From an uncultured Candidatus Rokubacteria bacterium (GTDB lineage: Bacteria; Methylomirabilota; Methylomirabilia; Rokubacteriales; CSP1-6), in assembly GCA_963747235.1 (NCBI GenBank), contig CAVVEU010000008.1:416001-480000 (forward strand): 64,000 nucleotides of DNA, given 5' to 3'. A model generated the notes under the pieces. It made no database searches, had not been told where the DNA came from, and worked only from the letters and a program-made list of their open reading frames with translations. Position 1 is the first letter of the stretch; every line of letters begins with the position of its first letter. Positions 8,218 through 63,893 of this stretch are shown in pieces. The position numbers and the translations under genes were made by a program.

Positions 8218-8369
8218 GATGGTGTACTCCCCTCGGTGAAATATGTGCAGGTTCGGGGCCAGAACCGCCGCGTGACATTTGGCCTACTTGGGGCCACGAG
8301 AGCCGGCCGGCGTGACGGCGAGTGTCGCTCGGCTTGACGAAGCGCCGGTTTGGGCTGATCCTCGGGCGC

Positions 8370-13331: not shown

Positions 13332-13393
13332 GGCTCCCGGCAGCGTAGCACACGGGTCCGGGCGGTGGACGGCGATGCTATCCTTCGGACACC

Positions 13394-44192: not shown

Positions 44193-44220
44193 TCCGGCAT
44201 CGGGTATACTCCGCGCACCC

Positions 44221-46242: not shown

Positions 46243-46245
46243 GCC

Positions 46246-47934
46246 ATGGGAAATGTTCCGCTCGACGCGGTGACGGTCGAGGTGGTCCGCGCCGCGCTCA
46301 ACGCGGCGGCCGAGCGCATGCGGATCACCATGATCAAGACCGCCTACAACCACATCATCAGCGAGAGCCTCGACTTCGGCTGCGCGATCTTCGATCCCGA
46401 CGTGCAGATGATCGCCCAGGGCATCGGGCTGCCAGTGTTCCAGGGCCACCTGGGCTTCCCCATCCAGGCCACCCTCGCCGATCGGGGCCTCGAGGCCTTC
46501 CGCGAGGGCGACGTCTTCATCCACAACGATCCCTACGCGGGCAACGGCAACCACCTGAACGACGTGGCCATGTACGCGCCGGTGTTCTGGGAGGGGGTGC
46601 TCACCGGTTTCGTCTCGGTGAAGGCCCACTGGAGCGACGTGGGCGGCCCGGTGCCGAGCTCCATGCAGGTGGGCTCGCGGGAGTTCCGGCAGGAGGGGCT
46701 TCGCTTCCAGTCGGTGCGCCTCTTCAGCCGCGGGGAGCTGAACGACGAGGTGATGCGGATGATCCGGGGCAACATCCGCACCGAGAGCGGCACGATGAAG
46801 GACATCCAGGCCATGATCGCGGTCTGCCGCGCCGGCCTGGCCTACTTCCACGAGATCCTCGGCAAGTACGGGCGCGACACCGTGCTCGACTCCACCCGGG
46901 TCTACCTCGAGCAGTCCGAGCGTCGCACGCGCGCCGAGCTGGCCCGCATCCCGTCGGGGACGTATCGGGCGGTGGCCCACTTCGACAACGACGGCATCAG
47001 CCTCGACCAGCCGGTGCGCATCGAGATGGCCATCACGGTGGACGCGGGCGCGATGACGGTGGACTTCGAGGGCTCGAGCCCGCAGGTGGTGGGCCCGTTC
47101 AACTGCGGCGACGCGATCACGGTCAGCGCGTGCCGGCTCCTGATCAAGTGCCTGACCACGCCGCTCACCCCGGTGGACGAGGGCTGCTTCCGGCCGCTCA
47201 CCGTGCGCATCCCGGCGCGCTCGGTGCTGGCCTGCGAGGAGCCCGCGCCGACCGCGCGCTACTACGTGCCGATCAACCTGCTGATCGACCTGGGCCTGCG
47301 CGCGCTCTCCGAGGCGCTGCCCGAGGGCATCCCGGCCGGCTCCTACGGGGACCAGATGCCCACGATCGCGTTCGGGACCCATCCCGACACCGGGCGCCTC
47401 TTCATCCAGGGCGATCTCAACGCGGGCGGCACCGGGGCGCGGCCGGCCTATGACGGCGAGTCCGGCATGATCATCTTCGCGGGCTCGACCGCGCGGAACA
47501 ATCCGGTCGAGGTGGTGGAGTCGCGCATCCCGACCATCCGCATCCTCAAGTACGGGCTCCGGCCGGACTCGGGCGGCGCCGGGCGGTATCGGGGCGGCCT
47601 TGGCATCGAGCGGCTCTACGAGTTCCTGGCGCCGGCCTTCATCACCTTCAGCCTCGAGCGCAAGGTCACGCCGCCCTGGGGCCTGCAAGGCGGGAAGGAC
47701 GGCGCGGTGAACGGCGTCGAGATCACCGCGCCCGACGGGGCGGTGCGGCACGTGCGCAAGGCGACCCAGCATCCGATCGCGGCGGGCGAGCGCGTGCGCA
47801 TCATGACCGGCGGCGGCGGCGGCTTCGGCCCGGCCGCCGAGCGGGATGAGGCGGCGGTGCGGCGCGACGTCCGCGAGGGCTACGTGACGCCGGAGGCCGC
47901 GCGGCGCGACTACGGCGCCCGCGGCGGGGCCTAG
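46246..47934 (+). CDS. Hydantoinase B/oxoprolinase subunit
   Basis: HNDPY...HLND, AHWSDVGG, QEG, DSGGAGRYRGG, GGGGFG. Confidence 0.96.
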   Translation: MGNVPLDAVTVEVVRAALNAAAERMRITMIKTAYNHIISESLDFGCAIFDPDVQMIAQGIGLPVFQGHLGFPIQATLADRGLEAFREGDVFIHNDPYAGNGNHLNDVAMYAPVFWEGVLTGFVSVKAHWSDVGGPVPSSMQVGSREFRQEGLRFQSVRLFSRGELNDEVMRMIRGNIRTESGTMKDIQAMIAVCRAGLAYFHEILGKYGRDTVLDSTRVYLEQSERRTRAELARIPSGTYRAVAHFDNDGISLDQPVRIEMAITVDAGAMTVDFEGSSPQVVGPFNCGDAITVSACRLLIKCLTTPLTPVDEGCFRPLTVRIPARSVLACEEPAPTARYYVPINLLIDLGLRALSEALPEGIPAGSYGDQMPTIAFGTHPDTGRLFIQGDLNAGGTGARPAYDGESGMIIFAGSTARNNPVEVVESRIPTIRILKYGLRPDSGGAGRYRGGLGIERLYEFLAPAFITFSLERKVTPPWGLQGGKDGAVNGVEITAPDGAVRHVRKATQHPIAAGERVRIMTGGGGGFGPAAERDEAAVRRDVREGYVTPEAARRDYGARGGA

Positions 47935-47946
47935 CCGGGCGGCCTC

Positions 47947-49165
47947 ATGGCTTCGCTCCGCGCGATCCGCTGCGGCACGCTGTTCGACGGGACCGGCGCG
48001 GCGCCCGTGCGCTCCGCGGTGGTGGTGGTGGACGGCGCGCGGATCACGGCCATCGGCCCCGCCGCCACCACGCCGGTGCCCGCGGGCGCCGAGGTCCTCG
48101 ACTGGAGCGATCGCTTCGTGATGCCGGGCCTGGTGGATGCCCACAGCCACATCTCGATCGTGCCGGGCGACGGCGACCAGATCGGCCAGCTCCGGCAGGA
48201 GGCGGTGCCGCAGGCGTTGCGCGCGACCGCGAACCTGCGGCGCGACCTGGCCTCCGGCACCACCACGCTGCGGGTGATGACCGAGGAGCACTTCCTCGAC
48301 GTGGCGGTGCGGGAGGCGATCGAGGCGGGCGTGATCCCGGGACCGCGCCTGCTCTGCGGCACGCGCGGCATCACCTCCAGCAACGGCCACGGCCGCGCGC
48401 ACTCCGCCTTCGACGGGGTGGACGAGATCCGCCGCGGGGTGCGCGAGAACTTCCAGCGCGGCGCCGATCACGTCAAGATCTTCGCCACCGGGGGAGTCAG
48501 CTCGCCGGGCACCACGCTGAACGCGAGCGTCTACTCGCGCGAGGAGATCCGGGCCGCGGTCGAGGAGGCGGAGCGGGCCGGGAAGTACGCGGCGGCCCAC
48601 GCCCACGGGGGCCCCGGGCTCCGTCTCTGCGTGGAGGAGGGCGTCTCCACCATCGAGCACGCCGGGCTCGCCACCGACGACGACGTCGCGCTGATGAAGG
48701 AGCATCGCGCCTGGCTCATCTGCACCTTCTCGATCTTCATGCACGCGCGCGGCATCGAGCAGGGCGACGGGCGCAACCCCGCGATCATGGCGAAGCTGGC
48801 CGCGGCGCGCCGGACGATCGCGGAGACCTTCCCGCGCCACCTGGCCTCGGGGGTGCGCTACGCCTCCGGCACCGATGGGGTGCACGGCGCGATGCCCTTC
48901 GAGCTGGAGACGCTGGTGCGCTTCGGGGTCTCCACGGCGGACGCGCTGCTGTCGGGCACGCGCTGGGCGGCCGAGGCCTGCCGCATGGACTCGGAGGTGG
49001 GCAGCCTGGCGCCGGGCAAGCGCGCGGATCTGATCGCGATCGAGGGCGACCCGCTGGCGGACATCGAGGCGCTCCGCCGGGTGCGCCTCGTCATGAAGGA
49101 CGGTGAGGTTCAGGACGTCATGTCGAACAATTATGGGAGGAACGGCAAGGGGGAGGAACGGGTGA
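47947..49165 (+). CDS. Metal-dependent amidohydrolase (stop lost in this assembly; end approximate)
   Basis: MPGLVDAHSH, HVKIFATGG, AHAHG, IEHA, GTDG, ADLIAIEGDPL, VMKDG. Confidence 0.88.
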
Positions 49166-50749
49166 TGGCGGATCGGGAGCGGACGGCGGACTGGGATCGG
49201 AGCACGCGGCGGGAGTGGCTGGGTCGGATGGGCGGGCTCGCCGCGGGGGCGGGGCTGGCCTCGATGGGCGGCGCGGGCCTCGCGGCGCGCCCGGCGTGGG
49301 CGCAGGGGCAGCCCAAGCGCGGCGGGCATCCTGAAGGTCGCCACCGTGGACAAGCCGGTGAACATGGACCCGGGCTTCGCCCAGCTCTACTCCTCGCTCC
49401 AGGTCTACCAGAACGTCTACAACAAGCTCGTCTACGTGGACGATGCCGGCCAGTTCGTGCCCGGCCTCGCGAAGTCGTGGAAGCAGGACGGCGAGAAGAC
49501 CTGGGTCTTCGACCTGGTGGACAACGCCACCTTCCACAACGGCGAGCCGTTCACCGCCAAGGACGTGGCCTTCACCTTCAACCGGCTGCTCGACGCCAAG
49601 AACAAGCTGCCGATGCGCGTGTTCTTCTCGCCGGTCGAAGGCGTGGAGGCGGTCGGGGCGCATCAGGTGCGCTTCAGCCTGAGCCGGCCGTTCGGCCCGC
49701 TCTTCGCGATGCTGTCGCAGGCCACCGAGATCGTCAACGAGAAGGCGCTCGCCGAGAAGGATCCGAAGCTGTTCCCGATCGGCACCGGGCCCTATCGCTT
49801 CGTGGAGTGGGTGAAGGACGACCACATCACGCTCGAGCGCTGGGACAAGTACTTCCGGCCCAACCGCCCGTACCTCGACCGCATCATCTTCCATTCGCCG
49901 GCCGACGACACGGTGCGGCTCACCGGGCTCCAGACCGGGCGCTTCAACTGGATCCAGACCGTGCCGCCGCAGCGCATCGCGGAGCTCGAGCGGCTGCCGC
50001 GCGAGATGAAGTCCTCGCCCGGCAAGCCCTACTTCCCGTTCTACCTGATGCTGAACGCGAGCCGCCCGCCGCTCAACGACAAGCGCCTGCGGCAGGCCCT
50101 GGCGTGGACGATCGACCGGTCCGAGATCGTCAAGCTCGTCTACTTCGACACCCACGTGGTCACCGCGGAGCCCACTCCGGCGCCGAGCCCGTGGGCCACC
50201 GGGGTGAACGCCCACAAGGGCGGCCCCGACCTGGCGAAGGCCAGGCAGCTCCTCGCCGAGGCGGGCCACGGCAACGGGCTCACCCTGACCTATCTCGTGA
50301 AGTCGCAGGTGCCGGTGCTGGTCAAGACCGGCGAGATCCTGCGCGAGCAGCTCAAGAAGGTGGGCATCACGCTCGACGTGCGGCCGCTCGAGTCCGGGCA
50401 GTACTTCGAGGAGCTGGTCGGCAAGAAGTTCGACATCGCGGGCGGGTGGTGGAGCGTCACGGTGGACCCGGACATGTTCTACTACCCGATGCAGCACTCG
50501 TCCTCGGCGTGGAACTTCTGCGGGTTCAAGTCGGAGGAGGCGGACAAGCGGCTCGACGCCTTCCGCTTCACCGCGAACGTGGCCGCGCGCAAGAAGATGT
50601 ACCCGGAGCTGGTGCGCTACTTCCAGGAGGAAGGCTCGCTGATCGTCTTCAGCAACGAGCTGCAGCGCTACTGGATGAAGCCCAACGTGCAGGGCTCGGC
50701 GCCGCTGTCCTCGCTCGAGCTGCGCTTCGAGGACACCTGGCTGAGTTGA
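49165..50749 (+). CDS. Family 5 ABC substrate-binding protein, Tat-exported (frameshift near 49330)
   Basis: TRREWL leader, PKRGG, PGLAKSW, FHNGEPFTAKDV, PIGTGPY. Confidence 0.9.
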
Positions 50750-50754
50750 TTGAA

Positions 50755-50786
50755 CTGGGGGGAGCGAGCGCCGCTCCTCCCCCAGG
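50755..50786 (+). other. Intercistronic GC-rich stem-loop after the SBP gene
   Basis: CTGGGGGGAGCG...CGCTCC(TC)CCCCAG pairs. No U-tract, so probably mRNA-stabilising or a REP-like element. Confidence 0.45.
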
Positions 50787-50814
50787 CCCCCCCACCGCTC
50801 TCGAACAGCGCGAG

Positions 50815-51760
50815 ATGATTCTCGTACGCGGTGCGGCGGCTGGCCTTGGCGGTGCCGCTGCTGCTCGGCATGAGCGTGCTGATCTTCGCGCTCATGCGCC
50901 TGGTGCCGGGCGACCCGGCGGTGGCGGTGCTGGGCTACAAGGCCACGCCCGACGGCATCCGGGCGCTGCGCGAGGCCTTCCACCTCGACGAGCCGGTGCC
51001 GCAGCAGTACCTGCGCTGGCTCGGCGCGGCCGCGCGCGGAGACCTCGGCCACGACTTCCGCCAGAACGAGCCCATCGGCCGGATGATCCTCGACCGGTTG
51101 CCGGTGACGCTCGAGCTGACCCTGCTCGCCGCGCTCTGCACGGTGCTGATCGGGGTGCCGCTCGGCCTTCTGGCCGGCGGCCGGCGCGGCGGGGCCGCGG
51201 ATCGGGCCGCGCTCGCGGTGGGCCTGCTCGGGGTCTCGGTGCCCGACTTCTGGCTCGGGATCATGCTGATCCTGGGCCTCTCGCTGGGCGCCGGGCTGCT
51301 GCCCTCGGGCGGGTGGGTGCCGTTCGCGGAAAGTCCGCTCGAGAACCTGATCCACATGGCGCTCCCGGCCCTGACGCTGGCGGTGAGCCGCGCGGCGGTG
51401 CTCGGCCGGCTGACCCGCGCCGCGGTGCTCGACACCATGCACAAGAGCTTCGTGCAGTACGCGCGCGCCAAGGGCCTCGGCGAGCGCGCCATCCTCTTCC
51501 GGCACGTGCTGCCCAACGCGGCGATCCCGATCGTCACGGTGCTCGGGCTGCAGGTCGGCTACATGCTGGGCGGCGCCATCGTGGTCGAGATGATCTTCAC
51601 GCTGCCCGGCCTCGGGCGCATGACGCTGGACGCGGTGCTCGAGCGCAACTACCCGGTGGTGCAGAGCGCGGTGCTGGTGATCGGCGCGATGTTCATGCTG
51701 GTGAACCTGGTCACCGACGTGCTCTACGGCGCCATCGACCCGCGCGTGCGGCGGCGCTGA
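50815..51760 (+). CDS. ABC permease DppB/OppB-like (start uncertain)
   Basis: RLVPGDPA, GDLG, VPDFWLG, YARAKGL, GGAIVVEMIFTLPGLG, DPRVR. Confidence 0.93.
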
Positions 51761-52596
51761 TGCGACCGTCGGGGATGAAGCTGGAGGGAGTGACCGTGGC
51801 CGGGCTCGCGGTGGTGGCCGCGCTCGCGCTGATCGCGGTCCTCGCGCCGCATGTCGTGCCGGGCAGCCCCACCGAGATCGCCAAGGACCACGCGCTGCGC
51901 GGCCCCACCTGGGGCCAGCCCTTCGGCATGGACGACCTCGGGCGGTCCATCCTGAGCCGGGTCGCGCACGCCTACCGCGTCTCGCTCGGCGTCGCGCTGG
52001 CCTCGGTGGCGCTGGCCCTGCTGGTCGGCCTCCCGCTCGGCCTGGTGGCGGGCTACGCGGAGGGCGCGCTCGATCAGCTCATCATGCGGCCGCTCGATGT
52101 GCTGATGGCGTTCCCCGCGATTCTCCTCGCGATCGCCCTCATGAGCGTGTTCGGCACCGGCGTGGTGCTGGTGGCCGCCTCGCTCGCGGTGGTCTACACC
52201 CCGATCGTGGCGCGCGTGGTCCGGGCCGCGGTGCTCGCGGTCAAGGCGGAGGTCTACGTGGACGGCGCGAGGGCGCTGGGCGCGCCGGCGCCCCGGCTGG
52301 TGCTGCGCCACATCCTGCCCAACGCGGCGACGCCGGTGCTGGTGCAGGCCTCGGTGCTGATGGCGATCGCGATCCTGGTCGAGGCCTCGCTGTCGTTCCT
52401 CGGGGTCGGCGTGCGGCCGCCGACGCCCTCGCTCGGGCTCATGCTGGCCGACGGCCGCGGCTTCATGGTGCAGGCGCCCTGGATGGTGATCTTCCCCGGG
52501 CTGGCCATCATGGCCGCGGTGCTCGGCTTCAACATGGTGGCCGACGGACTGCGCGACTGGCTCGACCCGCGTTCTGGCGGTAGCATGGGGGCATGA
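51760..52596 (+). CDS. ABC permease DppC/OppC-like
   Basis: GMDDLGRSI, YVDGARALGA, HILPN, EASLSFLG, DGLRDWLDPR. Confidence 0.93.
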   Translation: MRPSGMKLEGVTVAGLAVVAALALIAVLAPHVVPGSPTEIAKDHALRGPTWGQPFGMDDLGRSILSRVAHAYRVSLGVALASVALALLVGLPLGLVAGYAEGALDQLIMRPLDVLMAFPAILLAIALMSVFGTGVVLVAASLAVVYTPIVARVVRAAVLAVKAEVYVDGARALGAPAPRLVLRHILPNAATPVLVQASVLMAIAILVEASLSFLGVGVRPPTPSLGLMLADGRGFMVQAPWMVIFPGLAIMAAVLGFNMVADGLRDWLDPRSGGSMGA

Positions 52597-53840
52597 AGAC
52601 TCAGCGGTTCGTCATCGTGGGGGCCGCCCTGGCGGGCGCGAGCGCGGCGGCGGCGCTCCGTGAAGGGGGCTTCGACGGCCGGATCACCCTGATCGGCGCC
52701 GAGCCGCTGATGCCGTACAATCGCCCGCCGCTCTCGAAGGGCTATCTCCGCGGCCAGGACCGCTTCGAGGATCAGCTCGTCAATCCGCCCGCGTACTATG
52801 CCGAGCACGACATCACGCTGCGGTCGGGGGTGCGCGCGGACGCCATCGATCCGGGGCGCAAGATCGTCACCCTGGAGCGCGGCGACGAGGTCCCGTACGA
52901 CCGGCTCCTGGTGACCACCGGCGGGCGCAACCGGACGCTGACGACGCCCGGGGCCAACCTGCCCGGCATCTTCCAGCTCCGGACCGTGGAGGACTGCGAT
53001 CGGCTCCGCGCCGTGGCCAAGCCCGGGCGCCGCGCGGTCGTGATCGGCCTGGGGTTCATCGGCTCCGAGGTGACCGCGTCGCTCCGCCAGATGGGCGTCG
53101 AGGTCACGGCGGTCGAGGGCAATCCGGCGCCGCTGGCGCGGGTGCTCGGCCCGGAGGTCGGCGCGGTGCTGGCCGGCATCCATCGCGAGAAGGGCGTGGA
53201 GCTGGTCCTGGAAGACTCGGTCGCGGCCTTCGAGGGCACGGGCTGGGTGGAGCGCGTGCGCACGACGAAGGGGCGGGTGCTGCCGTGCGACTTCGTGGTG
53301 GCCGGCATCGGCATCGTGCCCAACGCGGAGCTGCTCGCCGCCGCGGGGGCGACGGTGGACAACGGCGTGCTCGTGGACGAGCGCTGTCGCACCTCGCTGC
53401 CGGACGTCTACGCGGCGGGCGACGTGGCGAACCATCTCCATCCCGTCTTCGGGCGGCTGCGCGTCGAGCACTGGAACAATGCCTACCGGCAGGGGCGGGC
53501 CGCGGCCCGCGCGATGCTGGACGGGCCCGAGCCCTACGACTACATGCACTCGTTCTGGTCGGATCAGTACGAGCACGTGATCGAGTACATCGGCTTCGCG
53601 GCGTCCTGGGACCGGCTCGTGTTCCGGGGCGATCCGGCCGGCCGGAAGTTCCTCGGCTTCTACGTGAAGGACGGGGTCGTGCGCGCGGCGGTGGGGCTCG
53701 ATCGCGGCGGCGATCCGGAGGATCCCAAGGGCGACAGCGAGCTGGCGGTGGTCGCGGGCCTCATCCGGGATCGCGTCCCGGCCGATCCGGGGCGGCTGGC
53801 CGACGAGGGCGTGGACCTCAAGCGCCTCGCCCGCCCATAG
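52593..53840 (+). CDS. NAD(P)H:ferredoxin reductase-like FAD oxidoreductase
   Basis: IVGAALAG, PYNRPPLSK, IGLGFIGSE, TSLPDVYAAGDVA, RVEHW, FWSDQY. Confidence 0.93.
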   Translation: MKTQRFVIVGAALAGASAAAALREGGFDGRITLIGAEPLMPYNRPPLSKGYLRGQDRFEDQLVNPPAYYAEHDITLRSGVRADAIDPGRKIVTLERGDEVPYDRLLVTTGGRNRTLTTPGANLPGIFQLRTVEDCDRLRAVAKPGRRAVVIGLGFIGSEVTASLRQMGVEVTAVEGNPAPLARVLGPEVGAVLAGIHREKGVELVLEDSVAAFEGTGWVERVRTTKGRVLPCDFVVAGIGIVPNAELLAAAGATVDNGVLVDERCRTSLPDVYAAGDVANHLHPVFGRLRVEHWNNAYRQGRAAARAMLDGPEPYDYMHSFWSDQYEHVIEYIGFAASWDRLVFRGDPAGRKFLGFYVKDGVVRAAVGLDRGGDPEDPKGDSELAVVAGLIRDRVPADPGRLADEGVDLKRLARP

Positions 53841-53858
53841 TGGTAAACTCCTGACATC

Positions 53859-54810
53859 ATGAGCTTCGACTACGGCAAGTACTTCGGCGAGATCAAGCTG
53901 ACGCACGACCTCCTCTCGAAGAAGGAGGAGCGCACCTGGCTGCTCAAGCCGCCGCGCGACGGCGAGCGCCACGATGTCGTCCTCTACCTGGGCTGCAACG
54001 TGCTGCGGACCTCGCACCTGGTCGAGACGGTGGGCGCGGTCTTCGACCGGCTCGGGCTCGACTACGTGGCCGCGGGCGGGCCGACCTACTGCTGCGGCAT
54101 CCAGCACCACCGCCGCGGGCAGGAGGCGTCGGGCGAGCGCTACGCCAATCACACCGTGGAGCTGCTGCAGAGCATGGCGCCGCGCGAGGTCGTGATGTGG
54201 TGCCCGTCGTGCATCCAGTTCTACGACGAGGTGCTGCAGGCCGAGCTGCCGTTCCCGAAGCGCCACACCGCCGAGTTCCTGGCCGACTGTCTCGACCGCG
54301 GGCTCTTCACGTTCACCCAGCGGGTCGAGGCCACCGTGGCGCTGCACTATCACTACGCGACGGAGGCCCGGGCGCGCGAAGGGCGGGCCGCGCGGCGGCT
54401 GCTGGAGGCGGTGCCCGGTATCACGGTGATCGACTTCGAGCCCGACGCGCGCTGGGGGCGCACGTGCACGCCGGCGCTCCAGGAGCAGCTCGGGCCCGCG
54501 GTCTGGCGGCAGATGGCGCTCGACGACATCGACCGGGCGGTCGGGGCGGGGGCCACGCACCTGGCCGGCATCTACCACGGCTGCCATCGCGATCAGTGCC
54601 GGTTCGAGCGCGAGCGGCCCGATCGTGGTCGAGCACTACCTGACGCTCTTCGCGCGCGCCCTCGGCATCGAGTTCGAGGACACCTACAAGAAGTACATGC
54701 ACATGGGCGACCCCGACCGGATCCTGGAGGACGCGAGCCCCTGCATGGCCGCCAACGGGGTCGATCCCGAGAAGGCGCGCGGGCTCGTCATCAAGACCTT
54801 CTCGGCGTGA
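53859..54810 (+). CDS. CCG-domain (HdrB/GlpC-like) Fe-S protein (frameshift near 54620)
   Basis: YLGCN...YCCG...WCPSC in the first domain. Degenerate second domain (RTC...YHGCHR). Confidence 0.75.
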
Positions 54811-55735
54811 CGCCGGTCGCCCGAGCAGGTCCAGTTCGCCCCGGAGGACGACGTGCCGATCCGGTACATGGATCGGACGCGTGAGTACTACCAGGCGCTC
54901 GGCTTCGCCCCGTACCGCTGGGCCCACTTCACCGACGCGCCGTTCACGCCGCTCGCCATGCCGCTCGCGCGGGCCCGGGTCGCGCTGATCACGACCGCGG
55001 CGCCCGTTCCAGCCGGAGGCCGGCGACCAGGGGCCGCGCGCGCCGTACAACGCGGCCGCGAAGTTCTACCAGGTGTACTCGGCGCCGGTGGACAGCAAGC
55101 CCGATCTCCGCATCTCGCACGTGGGCTACGATCGGGCGAACACGGTGCCCGAGGACCTCAACGCCTACGTTCCGCTGGCCAGGCTGCAGGACGCGGTCGC
55201 GGCGGGACGGATCGGCAGCCTGACCCCGCGCTTCCATGGCGCGCCGACGAATCGCAGCCACCGGGTGACCATGGAGACCGACGCCCCCGAGCTGCTGCGC
55301 CGCTGCCGGGAGGACGGCGCCGACGCGGTCGTCCTCGTCCCGAGCTGACCGGTCTGCCACCAGACCGTGGGTCTGGCCGCCCGGCACCTGGAGGCGAACG
55401 GCATCCCGACCGTGATCATGGGCTGCGCCAAGGACATCGTGGAGCACTGTGGCGTGCCGCGCTTCGTGTGGAGCGACTTCCCGCTCGGCAACTCGGCCGG
55501 GCGGCCCTTCGACGTGGAGTCCCAGGCGCAGACGCTCGAGCTGGCCTTCCGGCTGCTCGAGACCGCGCCGGTGGCCCGGACCACGGTGGCGTCGCCGCTC
55601 CGCTGGGCCGCGGACGCGGCGTGGAAGCATCGCTTCCTCGACGTCGGGAAGCTCTCGCCGGAGGCCATCGCGGAGCGGCGGAAGGAGTTCGACGTGGTGA
55701 AGGCGGTGGCGAAGGCCAAGCGCGAGGGCGCGTGA
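54807..55735 (+). CDS. GrdB/PrdB-like (glycine/sarcosine/betaine/proline reductase selenoprotein B family) protein, probable Sec at TGA 55346-55348; frameshift near 55005; start 54807 or 54853
   Basis: PIRYMDRTREYY, PFTPL...ARVALITTA, LRISHVGYDR, GRIG, DAVVLVPS-TGA-PVCHQTVGLAARHLEANGIPTV, VPR...FPLG. Both halves are in frame across the TGA. Confidence 0.88.
55360..55376 (+). promoter_or_regulatory. Putative bacterial SECIS hairpin
   Basis: CCAGACC-[GTG]-GGTCTGG: perfect 7-bp stem starting 11 nt after the TGA, with a G-first apical loop. Confidence 0.65.
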
Positions 55736-56925
55736 GCAAGCCGTTCGCGGGCGTCCGCATCCTGGACTTCACCCGCTATCTCGCCGGCCCGTACGGGACC
55801 TACCAGCTCGCCCTCCTGGGCGCCGACGTCATCAAGATCGAGTCGCACGAGGGCGACGAGACGCGCCTCTCGCCCGCCGATCCCAAGTGGGCGGAGCGGA
55901 AGATGGCCCCGTCGTTCCTCTCCATGAACGGCAACAAGCGGTCGATCACGCTCGATCTCCGGCGCAAGGAGGCGATCGAGGTCGTCCGGCGCCTGGTCGT
56001 CGGGGCGGACGTGGTGTGGGAGAACTTCCGGGGCGGGGTGATGGACCGGCTCGGGCTCGGCTACGAGGCCCTGTCCGCGATCAATCCCAAGCTCATCTAC
56101 TGCGGCGTCTCCGGCTTCGGCCGGACCGGGCCGGAGAAGGCCACCGCGGCCTTCGACGGCAAGCTGCAGGCGATGTCCGGGATCATGTCCATCACCGGCG
56201 AGCCCGCCTCGGGCCCCACGCGCGCCGGGTTCGCGCTCTGCGACACCATCGGCGGCATCACCGCGGCGCTCGCGGTGGCGAGCGCGCTCTACCAGCGGAC
56301 GCATACCGGGCGCGGCCAGCTCGTGGACGTGGCGATGCTGGACGCGGCGCTGGCCTTCATCGCGGGGCCGGTGTCGGAGTACACGGTGGCGGGCGTCGAG
56401 CAGAAGCAGATCGGCAACGGCTCGGTGAGCCGCAAGCCCACCGCGAGCCGCTTCCGCTGCGGCAACGGATTCATCGTGCTGGCGGTGCTGACCGAGAAGC
56501 AGTTCGTCGGCCTGATGAAGGCGCTCGGTCGGCCCGACGCGCTGGCCGACCCGCGCTTCAAGGACTGGCCGGCGCGCACCGCCAACGAGCCGGCGCTGCG
56601 CGAGATCATCGAGAAGGCGCTGGCCACCGACGATCCGCGCACGTGGGAGGCACGGCTGACCGCGGCCGACGTGCCCTGCGGCTCGATCTGGAAGGTGGAC
56701 GAGATCGTGGGCCACCCGCAGCTCGAGCACCGCGACGTGCTCCAGACCATCGACTCGCGCTACGGCCCGATGCGGCTCGTGGGCGCGGGCTTCCGTCTCG
56801 AGCACGGCAGCCCGGGGATCGACCGGGAGCCGCCGACGCTCGGCGAGCACACCGACGAGATCCTGGCCGAGGCCGGCTACACCGCGGAGGAGATCGAGCG
56901 GCTCCGGCGCGACGCGGTGGTGTGA
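55732..56925 (+). CDS. CaiB/BaiF family III CoA-transferase
   Basis: GVRILDFTRYLAGPY, GADVIKIE, NGNKRSITLDL, ENFR, PTLGEHTDEIL. GTGA overlap with the upstream stop. Confidence 0.93.
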   Translation: MSKPFAGVRILDFTRYLAGPYGTYQLALLGADVIKIESHEGDETRLSPADPKWAERKMAPSFLSMNGNKRSITLDLRRKEAIEVVRRLVVGADVVWENFRGGVMDRLGLGYEALSAINPKLIYCGVSGFGRTGPEKATAAFDGKLQAMSGIMSITGEPASGPTRAGFALCDTIGGITAALAVASALYQRTHTGRGQLVDVAMLDAALAFIAGPVSEYTVAGVEQKQIGNGSVSRKPTASRFRCGNGFIVLAVLTEKQFVGLMKALGRPDALADPRFKDWPARTANEPALREIIEKALATDDPRTWEARLTAADVPCGSIWKVDEIVGHPQLEHRDVLQTIDSRYGPMRLVGAGFRLEHGSPGIDREPPTLGEHTDEILAEAGYTAEEIERLRRDAVV

Positions 56926-56938
56926 GGGGGCGCGTCGC

Positions 56939-57985
56939 GTGAGGCTCCCGGTGACGGACGGCGTCGTGAAGACGGACCGGCACACCACGTTCTATCTCGA
57001 TGCCGGCGCCCCCGACGCGCCCCTCATCGTGTTCGTGCACGGCTGGCCCGAGCTCTCGCTCTCCTGGCGGCATCAGCTCCCGTGCTTCGCCGACCTCGGC
57101 TTCCGCGCGATCGCGCCGGACATGCGCGGCTACGGCCGCTCCGGCGTGTATCGACGCCACGAGGACTACGCGCTCGAGCACGCGGTGCGCGACATGCTCG
57201 AGCTGCTCGACGCGCTCGGGCGGGAGAAGGCGGTCTGGGTCGGCCACGACTGGGGCAGCCCGGTGGTCTGGAGCCTGGCGAGCCACCACCCGGAGCGCTG
57301 CTGGGGCGTGGCCAACCTCTGCGTGCCGTATCTCGCGGCCGGGTTCTCCCCGCGCAACCTGATCCCGCTCGTGAATCGCGCGGTCTATCCGGAGGCGCAG
57401 TACCCGGCGGGGCAATGGGACTACATGCTCTTTTACGAGGAGAGCTTCGCGAAGGCCTGTGCCGGCTTCGACGCCGATCCGCGCAACATGGTCAAGGCCT
57501 TGTTCCGGAAGGGGAGCCCGGGCGGCAAGGGCAAGCCGTCCCGCACCGCGCAGACCCGAAAGGACGGCGGCTGGTTCGGCGGCACCGGCCGGGCGCCCGA
57601 CGTGCCGATGGACGCCGACGTGGTGACCGCGGAGGAGCTCGACACGTACGCGGCCGGCCTCGCGCGCAACGGCTTCTTCGGCCCGGACTCCTGGTACATG
57701 AACGCGGAGCGCAACCTGGCTTACGCGACGCGGGCAAAGGACGGCGGCAGGATCAGCCTGCCCGTCCTGTTCCTGCACGGCGAGTACGACTACACGTGCG
57801 AGACCGTCGATTCCCGGCTGGCCGAGCCCATGCGGCGCGACTGCCGGAACCTCACCGAGGTGGTGGTGCCGTCGGGGCACTGGATGGCGCAGGAGAAGCC
57901 GCACGCCGTGAACGCGGCGCTGGCGGGATGGCTGGCCACCGCACTGCCGCAGGTGTGGCCGATCCGGCCCCGCCCGCGAGCCTGA
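56939..57985 (+). CDS. Epoxide hydrolase-type alpha/beta hydrolase
   Basis: HGWPE, PDMRGYGRS, GHDWGS, WY, GHWMAQEKP. Confidence 0.9.
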   Translation: MRLPVTDGVVKTDRHTTFYLDAGAPDAPLIVFVHGWPELSLSWRHQLPCFADLGFRAIAPDMRGYGRSGVYRRHEDYALEHAVRDMLELLDALGREKAVWVGHDWGSPVVWSLASHHPERCWGVANLCVPYLAAGFSPRNLIPLVNRAVYPEAQYPAGQWDYMLFYEESFAKACAGFDADPRNMVKALFRKGSPGGKGKPSRTAQTRKDGGWFGGTGRAPDVPMDADVVTAEELDTYAAGLARNGFFGPDSWYMNAERNLAYATRAKDGGRISLPVLFLHGEYDYTCETVDSRLAEPMRRDCRNLTEVVVPSGHWMAQEKPHAVNAALAGWLATALPQVWPIRPRPRA

Positions 57986-57992
57986 GCCCTCC

Positions 57993-58967
57993 ATGTTACG
58001 CACGCGCATCTGCGAGCTGCTCGGTATCGAGCACCCGATCGTCCTGGGCGGGATGGGAAGCGCCACGTCGCCCGAGCTGGTGGCCGCGGTCTGTTCCGCC
58101 GGTGCCTTCGGGGTGCTGGGCGCGACGCGGCAGAGCCCCGAGGAGGTGGCACGCGACGCCGCGGCGATTCGCGCGGCGACCGGCAAGGGCTTCGGGCTCA
58201 ACCTTCTCCTGTTCCTGGAGCGCCCCGGCCAGTACGACGGCCTCCTGGCCGCGCGGCCCCGGGTCATCTCCACCGCGTGGCCGACGCTCCAGCAGGATTT
58301 GAGCGGCTACGTCGCGCGGGCCCACGCGATCGGCGCCCTGTTCATGCACATGGTCTCGACGGTGGCCGACGCGAAGGCCGCGGCCCGCGCGGGCGTGGAC
58401 GTCATCGTGGCGCAGGGGACCGAGGGCGGCGGCCACGTCGGGGTCATGGGCACGATGCCGCTCGTGCCCATGGTGGTGAGCGCGGTGGCGCCGACGCCGG
58501 TGCTGGCCGCGGGCGGGGTCGCGGACGGGCGCGGCCTGGCCGCCGCGCTGGCCCTGGGCGCCGACGGCGTGCTGCTGGGCACGCGCTTCCTCGCGTCCGA
58601 CGAGGCGCCGATCGCCAAGGGCTTCAAGCAGGCGATCGTGGAGAGCGACGGGCACGACACGCTGGTGACCGAGATCCCGGACGTGGCCAACGGGCAGGTC
58701 TGGCCCGGGGCCTACGTGCGGGTGCGGCGGAATCGGTTCATCGAGGAGTGGGTCGGGCGGGAGAACGAGCTGCGCCTGCGGCGCGTCGAGGTGAGCGCCC
58801 AGCTCCGCGAGGCCGCCAAGGCGGGCGATCCGGACCGGGGCGCGATCATGATCGGCCAGACCGCCGGCCTCATCGACCGGGTCGAGCCGGCCGCCGACCT
58901 GGTCCGGCAGATCAGCCGCGACGCCGAGGCCATCCTGCGCGAGCGCCTGCCGCGCCTGCTCGCCTGA
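57993..58967 (+). CDS. Nitronate monooxygenase/FabK-like flavoprotein
   Basis: IEHPIVLGGM, AQGTEGGGH, AAGGVADGRG, GTRF, GQTAGLI. Confidence 0.92.
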   Translation: MLRTRICELLGIEHPIVLGGMGSATSPELVAAVCSAGAFGVLGATRQSPEEVARDAAAIRAATGKGFGLNLLLFLERPGQYDGLLAARPRVISTAWPTLQQDLSGYVARAHAIGALFMHMVSTVADAKAAARAGVDVIVAQGTEGGGHVGVMGTMPLVPMVVSAVAPTPVLAAGGVADGRGLAAALALGADGVLLGTRFLASDEAPIAKGFKQAIVESDGHDTLVTEIPDVANGQVWPGAYVRVRRNRFIEEWVGRENELRLRRVEVSAQLREAAKAGDPDRGAIMIGQTAGLIDRVEPAADLVRQISRDAEAILRERLPRLLA

Positions 58968-58974
58968 GGGAGCC

Positions 58975-60632
58975 ATGACCGAGAAGAGACCGGCGACGGC
59001 GTCACGCGGCATGGTGGTCACCAATCACCCGCTCGGCTCGGCGGCGGGGGCCGAGATGCTCGCCGCGGGCGGCAACGCGGTGGACGCGGCCATCGGCGCG
59101 CTCTTCGCGCTCACGGTGGTGGAGCCGATGATGGTGGGCATCTTCGGCGCGGGCATGACGCACCTGCGGCTGGCCGACGGCCGGCACCTCGTCATCGACA
59201 ACTACACCACCGCGCCCGCCGCCTCGCGGCCCGACATGTTCAAGCCGGTCTCCGACACCTGGCCCGACTACCTGCGCGCGGAGGGCGACGTCAACCTGGT
59301 CGGCCTGCTCTCGGTGGGCGTGCCCGGCACGCTCAAGGCGTGGGCGGAGGCGGTGGCGCGCTTCGGCCGTCTCGACCTCGAGACCGTGATGCAGCCCGCG
59401 ATCCGTCACGCCGAGCGCGGCTTCCGCGCCACGCCGTACCTGGTGGCGGCGGTGACCGAGACCGCGCCGGAGATCGCGCGCTTCCCCGACACCGCGCGCA
59501 CCTTCCTGCCCGGCGGCGCGCCCATCAAGGCGGGCGATCTGATCCAGATGCCGGAGTACGCGGCGACCCTGCGCCTGATCGCGGCGAAGGGGCCCGGCGT
59601 GCTCTACGGCGGCGATCTCGGCGCGACGGTGGCCGACTACATGCGCCGGGACGGCGGCATCATCACCCTGGACGACCTGGCGCGCTACGCCACGATCGAG
59701 CGGCAGCCCATCCGCGGTCGCTACCGCGGCTTCGAGATCACGGGCCCTCCGCCGCCGACCGCGGGCGGGCTCCACCTGGTCGAGATGCTCAACATCCTGG
59801 AGGGCTTCGACCCGCGCGGCCTGGGCTTCGGCACCGCGGACTACTTCCACCTGATGGCCGAGGTGCTCAAGATCGGCTTCGCGGACCGCAACGCGTGCAC
59901 CGGCGATCCGGCCTTCGTGGACATCCCGGTCGAGCGCCTGCTCTCGAAGGAGCACGCGGCCATGCGGCGCGCCCAGATCCGCCCGGATCGGGCGGGGGAG
60001 TACGGCGTGACGGCACGCGTGGCGGCCGGCTCCGCGCACACCACGCACGTCACGACCGCGGACGCCGACGGCAACGTGGTCGCGATGACCCAGACCATCA
60101 ACAACCTGTTCGGGTCGAAGGCCACGGTGCCCGGCACCGGCATGCTGCTCAACAACACCATGGCGCTCTTCGACCCGCACCCCGGGACGCCCGCCTCCAT
60201 CGCGCCCGGCAAGCGGGTGACCAGCAGCATGGCGCCGACGATCGTGCTGCGCGACGGCAAGCCCGCGTGGGCGCTCGGGCTGCCGGGCGGCGTGCGCATC
60301 TTCACCTCCGTGTTCCAGGCGGTGGTCAACCTGATCGACCACCGCATGAGCGCTTCAAGAAGCGGTGGAGGCGCCGCGGATCTGGAGCCAGGGCCAGGAG
60401 CTCGAGATGGAGCAGGATATCCCGGCCGCGGTGCGCGACGCGGTCGCCGCGCGCGGCCACGAGGTGGTGGCCGTCGGCGGGCGTGGCGGGCGGGATGAAC
60501 GCGGTGGCCTTCGCCGCCGACGGCACGCTCGAGGGCGCGGCCTGCTGGCGCGCCGACGGCACGCCCATCGGCGTGAGCGGCGGGCTCGCGCGGCCGGGGA
60601 GCCGCTTCCGGCCGGACGTGAAGCGGCCCTAG
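58975..60632 (+). CDS. ggt: Gamma-glutamyltransferase (frameshifts near 60355 and 60480)
   Basis: GGNAVDAA, VGVPG, YRG, TTHVTTAD (catalytic Thr), LLNN, PGKRVTSSMAP, GLPGG. Confidence 0.9.
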
Positions 60633-61388
60633 CGCTTCGCGCCCGCCGCGGCGCGGTCCATCAGGTCCTTCGCGCCGGCCTGGATCCACGGGAAGAAGCT
60701 GGTCATGATGCAGCGCACGCCCTTGCGCGTGTAGCTCTCCACGTTCGCCGAGCTGACCAGGGTGCCCGCGGTGCGCCCCGCCTGCACGATCTTGGCGATC
60801 GCCCCGTCCACCGTCTTCTGGACCTCCGGCTGCGTCATGTTGCCGATGTGGCCCATGGAGGTGGCGAGGTCGTTCGGGGCCACGAAGAAGACGTCGATGT
60901 GGTCCACGGTCAGGATCGCGTCGAGGTTGTTCACCGCCACGATGTCCTCGATCAGGACGATGAGCAGGCTCTGGTCGTTGGCGGTCTTGAGGTAGTCGCC
61001 CACGCCGAAGCCCTGGCGGCTCGTGAACATGCCGCGCTTGCCGAGCGGGGCGAACTTGGCGCCCTCCACCACCGCCTGGGCCTCCGCGCGGGTGTTGACG
61101 TGCGGCACGACGATTCCCTGCGCCCCGCGGTCGAGCGTCCGGTAGATCGTGGCGTAGTCGTTGTCCATCACGCGCACCACGCTGGTCACGTCCCAGAGGT
61201 CGCAGGCGCGGGTGAGGTTGCCCAGGTCGCGCGTAGTCCACGCCGCCGTGCTCGCCCTCGAGCCAGATGCCGTCGGCGCCCAGCGGCCCGAGCTGGTCGA
61301 TCAGGTCCGGATCGTTGGTGCCCGACAGGATGGTCGCCACCTGGCCCGCGGCCAGCCGCTGCTTCACCTTGTTCGCTCGGATGCTCAT
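60629..61388 (-). CDS. HpcH/HpaI aldolase family protein (frameshift near 61230)
   Basis: IWLEGEHG, VVRV, LDRGAQGIVVPHV, FAPLGKRG, LIED, FVAPNDL. Confidence 0.88.
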
Positions 61389-61410
61389 GGGATCGTCCTC
61401 TCGTGTCGGG

Positions 61411-62236
61411 TTAGGGGCGGGGCAGCGCGTCGCCGAGCATGCGGCCGAACACGACCATCTCGGGACTGGTCTTGCGATACGTGTCGAGCGCGGCCAGCAC
61501 CTCCGTGAACTCGGCGGCGGGCGGCATCGCGGGTGCGGCGGGCAGCGACGGCAGGGTGGCGAACACGCGCGGGATCTCGGCATCCACCGCGGCCAGGAGC
61601 CGCTGGCCGGCCGCGCGCGTGGCCGCGTCGTCCAGATGCGGCCGCAGCACCGTCGCCACGTGGGCGAGGAAGGCGGGCCACGACGGCGAGCATCCGGTAG
61701 AGCCCCGGGACGAAGACCTGGCCGGCCACGGTGGTGCCGAGCGTGGCCAGCACCGCGCGCTGGGCGGGCGGCAGCGCGGCGGGATCGGCGAGGGCGGGTA
61801 GCGGGCCGATCGGCGTCGGCGGCGTCCAGGCCGGCGCGCCGTTGCGGGCGCCGGTCGGGCGATCACCGGTCAGGATTCGCCGCAGCAGACCCGACAGCAC
61901 GAGGTTGACCGGGCTCACGCGGACGAAGCTCGCGCAGGTCGCGCGGATCGCCGCCTCGCCGGCCGCGTCCACGCCCCACACCGCGAGCGCGTCGCGCGAG
62001 AGCGGCGCGAGCCGGGGAACCGCGAGGCCGTCGGCGGCGCGCCAGGCCGCGGCCTGCGCGACGCCGCTCGTGAAGGCGGGGCCGAGCGCGGTCCACGTCC
62101 ATTCGAGCCAGCCCGGCCGCGTGGCCAGGTGGCGCTGGAGCGAGGAGACGTACGGCACGCCCCAGAGGCGCCGGATCTGCTCGTAGATGCCGGCGATCTC
62201 GCCGGTGGCATCGCTCTCCCGCAGCTCGGCCAGCAT
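61411..62236 (-). CDS. Hypothetical protein resembling the DehI (group I haloacid dehalogenase) fold; frameshift near 61685
   Basis: ESDATGEIAGIYEQIRRLWGVPYVSSLQRHLA..PGWLEWTW and an internal repeat FVPGLYRMLA.WPAFLAH. Confidence 0.55.
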
Positions 62237-62245
62237 CGCGCCGCC

Positions 62246-63893
62246 TCAGGGCTGCTGGGACGCCGGGAAGCTGAAGATGTTCGCGGGCTCGTGGTGCGGG
62301 CCGTGGTCCCGGCGGAGCCGCTCGACCATGCCGAGCGCGTACGGGCGCGCCTTCCAGGAGCTGGGCCAGCATCTGATCGTCGAGGCGCAGCCCCGCGCGC
62401 CGGGCCGCGGTCGCGCAGAGATCGCGGGTGGCCGGCGTCGGCCGGCTCGGTCACCGAGAGCACGGGCGGGGGCGTGACCGCGGGCGCCTCCGCGCCGGCC
62501 ACGAGCGTGGGGCGCCGGCGGTGCCACTCGGTGGCCTGCTCGTAGGCGTGGCCGACGCGCAGGATGGTCGGCTCGCCGAAGGGCCGGCCGAGGATCTGCA
62601 TGCCGAGCGGCAGGCCGTTCCGGCCGAAGCCGTTGGGCAGCGCGAGCACCGGCTGGCCGGTGACGTTCCACGCGGTGAGCCCGCTCGGCTTCTGCCAGAA
62701 CGACACGCTCCGGTAGTCGGCGAGGCGCGGCGCCTCGCCCATGCCGACGGTGACGAAGGCATCGAAGCGGTCGTAGAGCGGCTCCATCTCGACCATCATG
62801 CGGCGGTGCTCGCGCGTGGCCTGGACGTAGTCGTTCGCGGTGAAGAGCACGGCGGGGAGCGCGCGGGTGCGGAAGTCGGCGCCGAAGTCGGCCGGGCGCG
62901 CGATCAGGTCGCGCTGGTGCACGCTGAAGATCTCGGTCTCCGCGATGATGATCTTGACGTCGTAGTAGGCGCCGAGCGGGCGGACGCGGCACTCCTCGAG
63001 CTCCGCGCCCAGGCGGCGCAGCACGTCGAGCGAGGCCTCCATCGCCTTGCGCACGTCCTCCGAGGCCGGAATGTCCTGCTCCCAGTGATGCCGGAGCACG
63101 CCGATGCGCAGGCCGCGCAGATCCTGCCCGAGCGACCGCGTCGAAGCGCGGGGATCGGCCGCCGCAGGCTGCCCGCGTCCTTCGGGTCGTGGCCGGCCAG
63201 GGCCTGCAGGGTGAGCGCGCAGTCCTGGACGGTGCGGGCCAGGGGACCGCAGTGGTCGAACGTGTAGGAGTTGGTGATCACGCCGGCGCGGCTCACGAGG
63301 CCGAAGGTGGGCACGATGCCGACGATTCCGCAATGCGACGCGGGGCCGCGGATGGACCCGCCGGTGTCGGAGCCGAGCGCCATCGGCAGCAGGCCGGCCG
63401 CGACGGCGGCGCCCGAGCCGGTGGACGATCCGCCGGTGAAGTGGGCGAGGTTCCAGGGATTGCGCGCGGGCGGCCACGGCAGGTCGAACGACGGGCCCGC
63501 GTGGGCCATCTCGTGGGTGGCCAGCTTGCCGAGCAGGACCGCGCCGGCCTCGTAGAGCTTCGTGGTCGCGGTGGCGTCCTCGGTCGGGATCCGGTCGATG
63601 AACACGCGCGAGTGCGCGGAGGTGAGGATGCCCGCGGTGTCGTAGATGTCCTTGAGCCCGAACGGAATGCCGTGCAGCGGCCCGCGCGACCGGCCCGCCG
63701 CGATCTCGGCCTCGGCCTGCCGCGCCTGCCGCCGGGCCAGGTCGAACGTGGGCGTGATGAAGGCGTGCGTCTGGGCGTCGTACTGCTCGACGCGCTGGAT
63801 CAGCGCCTCGGCCAGCTCCACCGGCGACAGCGTGCGGGCGGCGATCAGGCGGGAGAGCTCGGCGATCGAGAGGTCGTGGAGATCGGCGGTCAT
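62246..63893 (-). CDS. Amidase signature family (GatA/AtzE-like) with C-terminal extension; frameshifts
   Basis: GPLHGIPFGLKD, GGSSTGS, GSDTGGSIRGPA, GLPLGMQ. Confidence 0.9.

Follow-up and report, generated by a model that had tools for sequence, protein, structure and literature searches.

Organization of the Four-Gene Cluster

The 64,000-nucleotide (nt) stretch of DNA analyzed here (hereafter the window; G000:C8:416001-480000, G+C content 70-74%) comes from the metagenome-assembled genome (MAG) G000, which comprises 5.57 Mb in 42 contigs and is 88% complete. Between 52593 and 56925 it is occupied by four adjacent genes, all on the forward strand, for an NAD(P)H-dependent flavin adenine dinucleotide (FAD) reductase (52593-53840), an HdrB/HdrD-like CCG iron-sulfur (Fe-S) protein (53859-54810), a PrdB/GrdB-like selenoprotein (54807-55735) and a family III coenzyme A (CoA) transferase (55732-56925). 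The subject of this report is the selenoprotein and its gene partners. The closest public loci belong to MAGs of Candidatus Methylomirabilota/Rokubacteria, and the window shares synteny, at about 87% nucleotide identity, with two of these loci, L029 and L038, in the case of L038 across 48829-63709. In an index of sequencing runs, 21 runs contained 23-51% of the sampled words, mostly from soil and sediment metagenomes, and no habitat claim is drawn from them.

The preliminary description of this DNA gave the same four genes in the same order, with an 18-nt gap followed by GTGA overlaps. The gap (53841-53858) between the FAD reductase gene and the CCG gene, which starts at 53859, was confirmed, as was the GTGA overlap of the PrdB-like gene with the CoA-transferase gene at 55732-55735. 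Genes and order are thus retained, except that the two middle genes are not intact reading frames in this assembly. Three-frame translations and alignment to homologues located one +1 shift in each, at the CCC run 54617-54619 in the CCG gene and at the CCC run 55003-55005 in the PrdB-like gene. The proposed overlap of the CCG gene with the PrdB-like gene through GTG 54807 depends on one more correction. This GTG sits in the third frame and meets a stop at 54882; to lead into the conserved N-terminus (QFAPEDD) it requires a third extra C, in the run 54820-54822. Without any correction the first in-frame start of the PrdB-like gene is GTG 54853, and no in-frame start codon exists between the CCG stop and the conserved PrdB-like N-terminus. 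Since there is no other in-frame start and L038 shows the same arrangement, with ATGA as the overlap of CCG stop and PrdB-like start, the start at 54807 is credible and the third extra C plausible.

The frameshifts in the two genes are probably assembly errors, because the extra single C at 54617-54619 and that at 55003-55005 are missing from both L029 and L038. Each shift consists of one extra C in a GCCCG context, and the protein sequences on both sides of each break are 90-94% identical to orthologues. The two pieces of the PrdB-like protein abut exactly on homologues, between ...ITTAAP and FQPEAG.... The reading frames keep a G+C content at third codon positions (GC3) of 0.93-0.98, the codon bias of live genes. 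Lone 1-nt insertions relative to L038 occur throughout the window, for instance near 49324, 60350, 60478, 61230 and 61685. The gamma-glutamyltranspeptidase gene (58975-60632), which contains the insertions near 60350 and 60478, loses its frame near the 3' end. Elsewhere in the genome, selD-like matches are split over three frames (G000:C8:303114-303868) or two (G000:C27:46033-46945), suggesting many single-base insertion or deletion errors in the assembly.

Identification of the Selenocysteine Codon

The PrdB-like gene contains a TGA codon at 55346-55348 (forward strand) within the motif VPS-U-PVC-HQT (U-P-V-C), where U stands for selenocysteine (Sec). This TGA is a genuine Sec codon, because it is aligned with Cys in homologues, a hairpin next to it is conserved, and selA, selB, selD and tRNA-Sec are present in the genome. 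The comparison was made with the closest 80 loci among at least 592 matches on one-genome-per-species contigs, which is not a random sample. Among the 81 gene copies at these loci, the Sec column is TGA in 25, TGC in 45 and TGT in 11 (Cys 56/81). Users of TGA are all 18 loci of Rokubacteria, Methylomirabilota and Binatia (19 copies) and six loci of alphaproteobacterial MAGs. Each full-length orthologue listed in a phylum-wide search carried exactly one TGA, with the exception of the frameshifted gene of G160, which carried two.

A hairpin resembling a selenocysteine insertion sequence (SECIS), CCAGAC-CGUGG-GUCUGG, was obtained by folding at 55360-55376 (forward strand), beginning 11 nt past the UGA. 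All six base pairs of the stem can form in 24 of the 26 Sec forms, the window among them, against 2 of the 56 Cys forms. Of the Sec forms, 25 of 26 supply the 3' arm through the GC-poor codon AGT or GGT, against 47 of the 56 Cys forms with AGC or GCG at that place. As for the Sec machinery, selA (578 bits), selB (365 bits) and tRNA-Sec (69.3 bits) were detected on contig C14 and selD (227.8 bits) on C27; selB, selA and tRNA-Sec are clustered on one strand at G000:C14:40679-45481. Alignment of UGA with Cys in UxxC, a SECIS-type hairpin and the Sec machinery are the marks of the environmental PrdB-like UxxC family, and all of them were found.

Family Assignment of the PrdB-Like Protein

The PrdB-like protein (about 308 amino acids) was compared with curated models through its C-terminal piece in the window and through an intact orthologue, P0123. 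Against TIGR04483 (D-proline reductase PrdB), the two score 89.3 and 90.9 bits, both below the cut-off of 300. Against PF07355 (GRDB superfamily, cut-off 22), P0123 passes narrowly with 24.4 bits and a paralogue, P0394, with 29.2 bits, while the window C-terminal piece alone reaches 21.5 bits. The scores of P0123 are below the cut-offs of all GrdB-type models, including TIGR01917 (35.3 vs 602.2), NF040794 (39.3 vs 800) and NF040795 (34.2 vs 775), and of the broad subfamily model TIGR01918 (36 vs 65.45). The gene codes for a real UxxC selenoprotein of the GrdB/PrdB superfamily.

Structure prediction gave a mean predicted local distance difference test (pLDDT) of 56.6 with a shallow alignment, and of 88.9 with a 34-row alignment (predicted template-modelling score, pTM, 0.88). 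With this model, Foldseek detected no PDB match at E ≤ 0.001. The wide fold search VIA returned LacI/periplasmic-binding and short-chain dehydrogenase/reductase Rossmann-like cores over residues 52-272, with a best Z of 9.7, within the common range. Judged from the predicted models, fold searches give no functional lead for this protein.

The family is large: at least 8000 candidates were scored in a word-based search, with homologues of about 310 amino acids, and a profile search of 1.84 billion cluster representatives gave 2144 matches at E ≤ 0.001 and 260 at E ≤ 1e-30. It is common in aerobic Bradyrhizobium and Acetobacteraceae. One library representative, P0276 (480 amino acids), has a Ser/Thr protein kinase domain at 12-249 followed by a PrdB-like profile match at 269-469, and may be a fusion or a gene-calling artefact. 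The genome also carries a second UxxC paralogue (UPFC) at G000:C29:143229-144440 (L028 7230-8441), with 139.8 bits against TIGR04483 and a C-terminal extension of about 190 residues. It lies two genes from, and downstream of, a family III CoA-transferase gene, with genes for a thiamine diphosphate enzyme and a Zn-dehydrogenase, and no CCG gene near. On one Rokubacteria contig, L030, two PrdB-like Sec genes lie 5 kb apart (8013-8882 and 13363-14232), the former preceded by a 4HBT thioesterase gene and followed by a CoA-transferase gene.

Search for Glycine and Proline Reductase Partners

The preliminary description had noted that neither Grd/Prd partners nor thioredoxin were encoded nearby and had proposed a non-Stickland reductase. 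The 64-kb window indeed contains no thioredoxin gene and no partner gene, and a search of the genome for grdA, grdE and prdA yielded nothing above cut-off. No match to GrdA (PF04723) was found in G000, at its 88% completeness, by a model that matched no control genome and so lacks a positive control; the same applies to GrdE/PrdA (PF09338), a model that matched none of 14 control genomes. PF09338, again with no positive control, also drew no match in five further genomes that carry the family, among them those of two loci on complete Bradyrhizobium chromosomes. The best match to PrdC (TIGR04481) in G000 had 29.2 bits against a cut-off of 490. By its curated scores the PrdB-like protein is not a Stickland reductase, and no Grd/Prd partners were detectable in the genome.

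Pairing of the PrdB-Like Gene with a Family III CoA-Transferase Gene

The fourth gene codes for an intact CoA-transferase of the CaiB/BaiF/Frc type (55732-56925, forward strand, 397 amino acids), which matches PF02515 at full length (positions 2-366 of 366) with 381.4 bits. The closest solved chains are formyl-CoA transferase 10uh (244 bits), 4ed9, YfdE and SUGCT. The Asp of ...LCDTIGG... is aligned with the Asp of solved family III members including 10uh, presumably the catalytic residue of the family. The protein stays below every NCBIfam equivalog cut-off, the best being succinate-glutarate CoA-transferase (274 vs 750 bits).

At 60 of the 80 PrdB-like loci, a family III CoA-transferase gene starts on the same strand within 400 nt downstream. 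These loci come from Methylomirabilota/Rokubacteria, Binatia, Acidobacteriota and many Alphaproteobacteria including Bradyrhizobium. Between the window and the alphaproteobacterial loci, the PrdB-like proteins are 61-68% identical and the CoA-transferases 55-69%. The two diverge in step, and the CoA-transferase forms an orthologous group of its own that travels with the PrdB-like gene. The second UxxC paralogue of the genome, on contig C29, is likewise encoded close to a family III CoA-transferase, which speaks for the pairing. In addition, an AMP-binding acyl-CoA synthetase is fused to the PrdB-like domain in three of the profile-search matches, all representatives of 50%-identity clusters, P0247 (805 amino acids, complete), P0245 and P0246. 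Clustering of the neighbours at the 80 loci, with all coding-like genes included, revealed no other broadly shared gene, the next clusters being restricted to 17 Bradyrhizobium loci.

Based on this survey of gene order, the conserved unit is the PrdB-like gene plus the family III CoA-transferase gene, and not the set of four genes that had been put forward as a module. The CoA-transferase had been overlooked as the conserved partner, and it points to a CoA-thioester substrate. The pairing, the divergence in step and the fusions link the PrdB-like protein to the activation of a carboxylate as a CoA ester.

CCG Protein and FAD Reductase as Lineage-Specific Neighbors

The CCG protein (53859-54810, forward strand, about 316 amino acids after correction of the frame) matches PF02754 with 32.2 bits against a cut-off of 20.6, over residues 40-118. 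CCG domains in HdrB bind non-cubane 4Fe-4S clusters and form the disulfide-reducing site. In an alignment of 25 members, C46, C78, C79 and C118 are invariant and C115 nearly invariant, giving the pattern C-X(n)-CC-X(n)-C-X-X-C, which we take to be the canonical CCG spacing. The second half of the same 25 sequences has invariant C203, C242, C247 and C295, without a CC pair. Curated matches are all weak (GlpC, 32-34 bits; LdhH, about 26 bits), and the score against NF045663 (diclust_near_Sec) is 18.5-21.7 bits for a cut-off of 530. The family is small, with 736 matches, mostly from Rokubacteria. A PDB sequence search with P0121, the intact CCG orthologue from L038, and with P0123 gave nothing meaningful, and an ESM Atlas look-up returned only generic clusters of the 'cysteine-rich / heterodisulfide reductase-related' CCG kind. 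Prediction of a complex between the CCG and PrdB-like proteins from two single sequences (P0121 and P0001), run without controls, scored 0.00 against a mark of 0.34 and is evidence neither way.

The FAD reductase (52593-53840, forward strand, 415 amino acids, intact) has the Pyr_redox_2 plus Reductase_C architecture (224.5 and 62.7 bits) of the ferredoxin/putidaredoxin-reductase type, a class that hands single electrons to Fe-S proteins. Among solved structures 3lxd comes closest (270 bits), followed by putidaredoxin reductase 1q1r (234.8 bits), and the nearest relatives also include rubredoxin and ferredoxin reductases. It remains below the NCBIfam equivalog cut-offs of HcaD (310 vs 450) and AndAa (306 vs 650).

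The distribution of the CCG gene was surveyed in 251 genomes of the phylum, of which 127 carry a CCG gene and 174 a PrdB-like gene. In the genus of the window, coordinate comparison showed that every one of the 18 CCG-bearing sister genomes has the CCG gene immediately upstream of the PrdB-like gene, as does the window itself, and the 4-nt start/stop overlap (ATGA or GTGA) is kept across the genus. The two genes are translationally coupled, and the genus conserves this coupling. An FAD reductase gene lies upstream of the CCG gene at 12 of the 16 genus loci that could be assessed; one further locus has too little flank.

A GlcD-like FAD oxidase gene lies 1.5 kb upstream in 17 Bradyrhizobium loci. 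A hydroxy-acid oxidase role for the CCG protein was considered from this arrangement and rejected, since the arrangement is confined to one genus and no CCG gene is present at those loci.

Genes Surrounding the Cluster

Upstream of the cluster (44038-52596) are genes for the A and B subunits of a hydantoinase/oxoprolinase, an amidohydrolase and a peptide-type ATP-binding cassette (ABC) transporter. Downstream are genes for an alpha/beta hydrolase and a nitronate monooxygenase, and the whole block is syntenic with L038. Gamma-glutamyltranspeptidase is also among the flanking catabolic genes. A 1549-amino-acid open reading frame at 47947-52596 is a read-through artefact of high G+C content over several genes.

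A Model of the Reaction and Its Alternatives

We interpret the cluster as an operon around a conserved core, the UxxC PrdB-like selenoprotein and the family III CoA-transferase, joined in this lineage by the CCG protein and the FAD reductase as a possible electron-supplying add-on; this interpretation has, in our estimate, an even chance of being correct. In the model, the CoA-transferase, whose nearest relatives act on oxalate, succinate or glutarate-type acids, would convert a carboxylic acid to its CoA thioester; this activation would fall to an acyl-CoA synthetase in other lineages, at times as a fusion with the PrdB-like domain. The selenolate of the PrdB-like protein would then attack the thioester-activated substrate and the nearby Cys would resolve the adduct. 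Overall, the substrate would be reduced by two electrons or reductively cleaved, with no pyruvoyl subunit involved and a selenenylsulfide (Se-S) bond left behind. The thioester would thereby take the activating role played by the pyruvoyl-imine of PrdA/GrdE in Stickland reductases. In most lineages, which have no dedicated partner, the Se-S bond would be re-reduced by general thiol systems. In this genus two upstream genes would have been recruited, for the coupled CCG Fe-S protein and usually for the ferredoxin-reductase-type flavoprotein, which could plausibly feed electrons from NAD(P)H to the Se-S bond in an Hdr-like manner.

The steps of this model differ in probability. That the PrdB-like protein uses a CoA-thioester substrate, as the pairing and the fusions indicate, is somewhat probable. 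A reductive reaction, as the PrdB/GrdB homology and the UxxC motif suggest, is about evenly balanced. The assignment of the CCG protein and the FAD reductase as the reductant in this genus is tentative and, in our judgment, doubtful. Least secure is the full generalization, which we regard as rather unlikely: the PrdB-like protein and a CoA-activating enzyme would form a pyruvoyl-independent Sec/Cys reductase class acting on a thioester-activated acyl-CoA carbon, and in a few Rokubacteria-like genera an NAD(P)H-FAD-CCG chain would directly reduce the selenenylsulfide of the protein. If true, it would provide a function for a selenoprotein family that is abundant in oceans and soils and has been without one since 2005, and the NAD(P)H-FAD-CCG chain would represent thioredoxin-independent Hdr-type chemistry with a protein as its substrate.

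A number of observations weigh against this interpretation, and several of them favor an alternative in which the FAD reductase and the CCG protein contribute to a different step of the same catabolic island, or to a reaction unrelated to it, for example as a dehydrogenase subunit similar to GlcF, LutA or GlpC, with the Se-S bond recycled by thioredoxin or general thiols. Among the 80 PrdB-like loci, the FAD reductase and CCG genes are present at just two, L029 and L038, the two closest relatives, and the CCG gene is missing at the other 78. Outside the genus, 72 genomes carry an orthologous PrdB-like gene (at least 68% identity) and 63 of them also a CCG match, yet just 2 of the 63 (G187 and G163) have them side by side. 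The loci in G189 and G204 are cut by contig ends, and in the remaining genomes the genes are on separate contigs or the distance between them exceeds 100 kb; among the genomes counted are two unpublished ones, G217 and G076, neither of which has the genes next to each other. The CCG protein encoded beside the PrdB-like gene in G163 is only 57% identical, and the order CCG, PrdB-like and CoA-transferase is kept there, with no FAD reductase gene. Nor is the FAD reductase gene present in G187 or, within the genus, at 4 of the 16 assessable loci (L115, L119, L122 and L125). Elsewhere, CCG orthologues of 83-87% identity adjoin unrelated genes, and one genus (L134-L136) has a CCG gene in 6 of 8 genomes and a PrdB-like gene in none; the CCG protein there is about 60% identical and its gene is often divergent from an enoyl-CoA hydratase gene. 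The CCG protein is not a general partner. Judged from its placement, it leads an independent existence and has come to stand before the selenoprotein gene in three genera. The expected co-occurrence of this CCG family with GrdB-like genes is therefore restricted to adjacency within one genus plus two outside cases, and the FAD reductase cannot be retained as a fixed part of a module. The second CCG domain is degenerate, with Pfam recognizing one domain only, and the best curated matches, weak as they are, point to GlpC and LdhH. Three thioredoxins encoded elsewhere in the genome could act as reductant, and the many lineages without a CCG gene must recycle the Se-S bond through thioredoxin or other general thiols. 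The flanking genes, from hydantoinase/oxoprolinase, amidohydrolase and ABC transporter to alpha/beta hydrolase, nitronate monooxygenase and gamma-glutamyltranspeptidase, are those of a catabolic island. On the other hand, the 4-nt overlap of the CCG and PrdB-like genes is maintained genus-wide, three genera have gained or kept the two side by side, with CCG identity down to 57%, and the CCG gene here has no neighbor coding for a flavin dehydrogenase subunit such as GlcD or LutB. We consider this separate role of the CCG protein and the FAD reductase possible, at clearly less than an even chance. For the core itself, an adjacent transferase is missing at 20 of the 80 loci; one of these has a transferase 1 kb off, seven have an AMP-ligase, enoyl-CoA hydratase or family I CoA-transferase within 6 kb, and several more have less than 1.5 kb of downstream flank. 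Beyond the pair, the neighborhood is highly variable and gives no consistent clue to the substrate.

The remaining alternatives concern the selenoprotein itself. It might not be a reductase of small molecules at all, and its UxxC pair might instead serve as a thiol-disulfide switch or redox sensor, as a carrier of S or Se, or as the acid-base pair of a CoA-ester isomerase. In most lineages no reductant gene is conserved beside the PrdB-like/CoA-transferase pair, family III includes racemases (alpha-methylacyl-CoA racemase, with about 110 bits, is among the solved relatives), and fold prediction yields a generic Rossmann/periplasmic-binding-like core that matches no specific enzyme. The homology to PrdB/GrdB, however, covers the Sec-bearing region, Sec/Cys alternation in UxxC usually marks redox catalysis, and Table 3 of PMC1088965 places the family among thiol-dependent redox selenoproteins, so that such a role seems improbable. 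Decay of the cluster, with the CCG and PrdB-like genes as true pseudogenes, is suggested by the frameshifts of both middle genes, two or three within 1.9 kb. It is less probable still, given that every shift is an extra C in GCCCG flanked by protein sequence 90-94% identical to orthologues, that scattered 1-nt insertions and split selD frames affect this 42-contig MAG at large, and that GC3 remains that of live genes. Finally, database names such as 'D-proline reductase PrdB' and 'glycine reductase', and a genome just 88% complete, would allow a canonical B subunit of D-proline or glycine/sarcosine/betaine reductase with its partners encoded elsewhere. The low curated scores (TIGR04483, 90.9 vs 300; TIGR01917, 35.3 vs 602; TIGR01918, 36 vs 65), the lack of PF04723 and PF09338 matches in the genome and of PF09338 matches in five other family genomes (both models lacking a positive control), the PrdC score of 29 vs 490 bits and the abundance of the family in aerobic Bradyrhizobium and Acetobacteraceae bring this explanation close to refutation.

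Comparison with Known Systems

One close known system is the PrdB subunit of D-proline reductase (Clostridium sticklandii and C. difficile), a short homologous Sec subunit; residues 50-270 of P0123 align to TIGR04483. In D-proline reductase, Sec attacks an activated alpha-carbon and Cys resolves the adduct. In contrast to that enzyme, neither PrdA nor PrdC is matched in this genome, the TIGR04483 score lies far below the equivalog cut-off, and the PrdB-like protein has about 70 additional conserved residues in its N-terminal part, a CoA-transferase partner and aerobic or soil hosts. With GrdB, GrdF and GrdH it shares the superfamily (PF07355, 24.4 bits) and Sec at the equivalent site. It differs from these proteins B in size (about 310 against about 435 amino acids), in the lack of a GrdA or GrdE match in the genome and in scores of 34-39 bits against cut-offs of 602-800.

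The upstream genes resemble the HdrABC/HdrD and NF045663-type flavoprotein-CCG systems, in which an NAD(P)H flavoprotein likewise accompanies a CX(n)CCX(n)CXXC protein. NF045663 is named 'pyridine nucleotide-disulfide oxidoreductase/dicluster-binding protein', and its model name, diclust_near_Sec, links this fused protein to neighboring selenoprotein genes. Unlike the Hdr systems, the cluster here includes no HdrA or HdrC-type ferredoxin domain and one recognizable CCG domain, the proposed substrate is a Se-S bond of a protein instead of CoM-S-S-CoB, and the linkage occurs in few genera. The CoA-transferase shares the full-length PF02515 match, 200-244 bits and the aligned Asp with Frc (formyl-CoA:oxalate), YfdE (acetyl-CoA:oxalate) and SUGCT (succinyl-CoA:glutarate/hydroxymethylglutarate), but falls below all equivalog cut-offs and forms its own orthologous group.

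The environmental family named 'Proline reductase PrdB', with UxxC and pfam07355, has been known since 2005 (Zhang, Fomenko & Gladyshev 2005, PMC1088965; Zhang & Gladyshev 2008, PMC2398784). It is among the most abundant selenoprotein families of two marine data sets, with 42 sequences from the Sargasso Sea and 235 Sec and 110 Cys forms in the Global Ocean Sampling (GOS) data (PMC1088965; PMC2398784). The gene described here shares with it the UxxC motif, the similarity to pfam07355, the Sec/Cys alternation and aerobic environmental bacterial hosts. In their accessible parts these papers file the family as a proline reductase and mention no partner, and the main text of the GOS paper (PMC2398784) contains no occurrence of 'PrdA' or CoA-transferase; the accessible part of a 2026 review lists just D-proline reductase and the prdB-prdC operon. 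Within the literature covered, with subscription journals and supplements outside the search, no paper was found that connects the family with a CoA-transferase or an acyl-CoA synthetase fusion, or with a CCG protein or flavin reductase. For the subfamily at hand, the present analysis defines the partner genes, and membership of the marine and soil sequences in that same subfamily is not assumed.

The 'PrdB' UxxC family is thus one of the commonest selenoprotein families of aerobic environmental bacteria and is still annotated as proline or glycine reductase, even though the partner subunits of those enzymes went undetected here. The CoA-transferase partner and the synthetase fusion make its function experimentally approachable, suggesting CoA esters of small acids as candidate substrates. 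Recruitment of the CCG protein and the flavin reductase at the genus level represents a candidate natural reductant, not a general part of the system, and the label of a four-gene 'module' should not be propagated. While the selenoprotein family itself was already known, the delimited two-gene core, the synthetase fusions and the genus-level add-on of CCG protein and flavoprotein are new.

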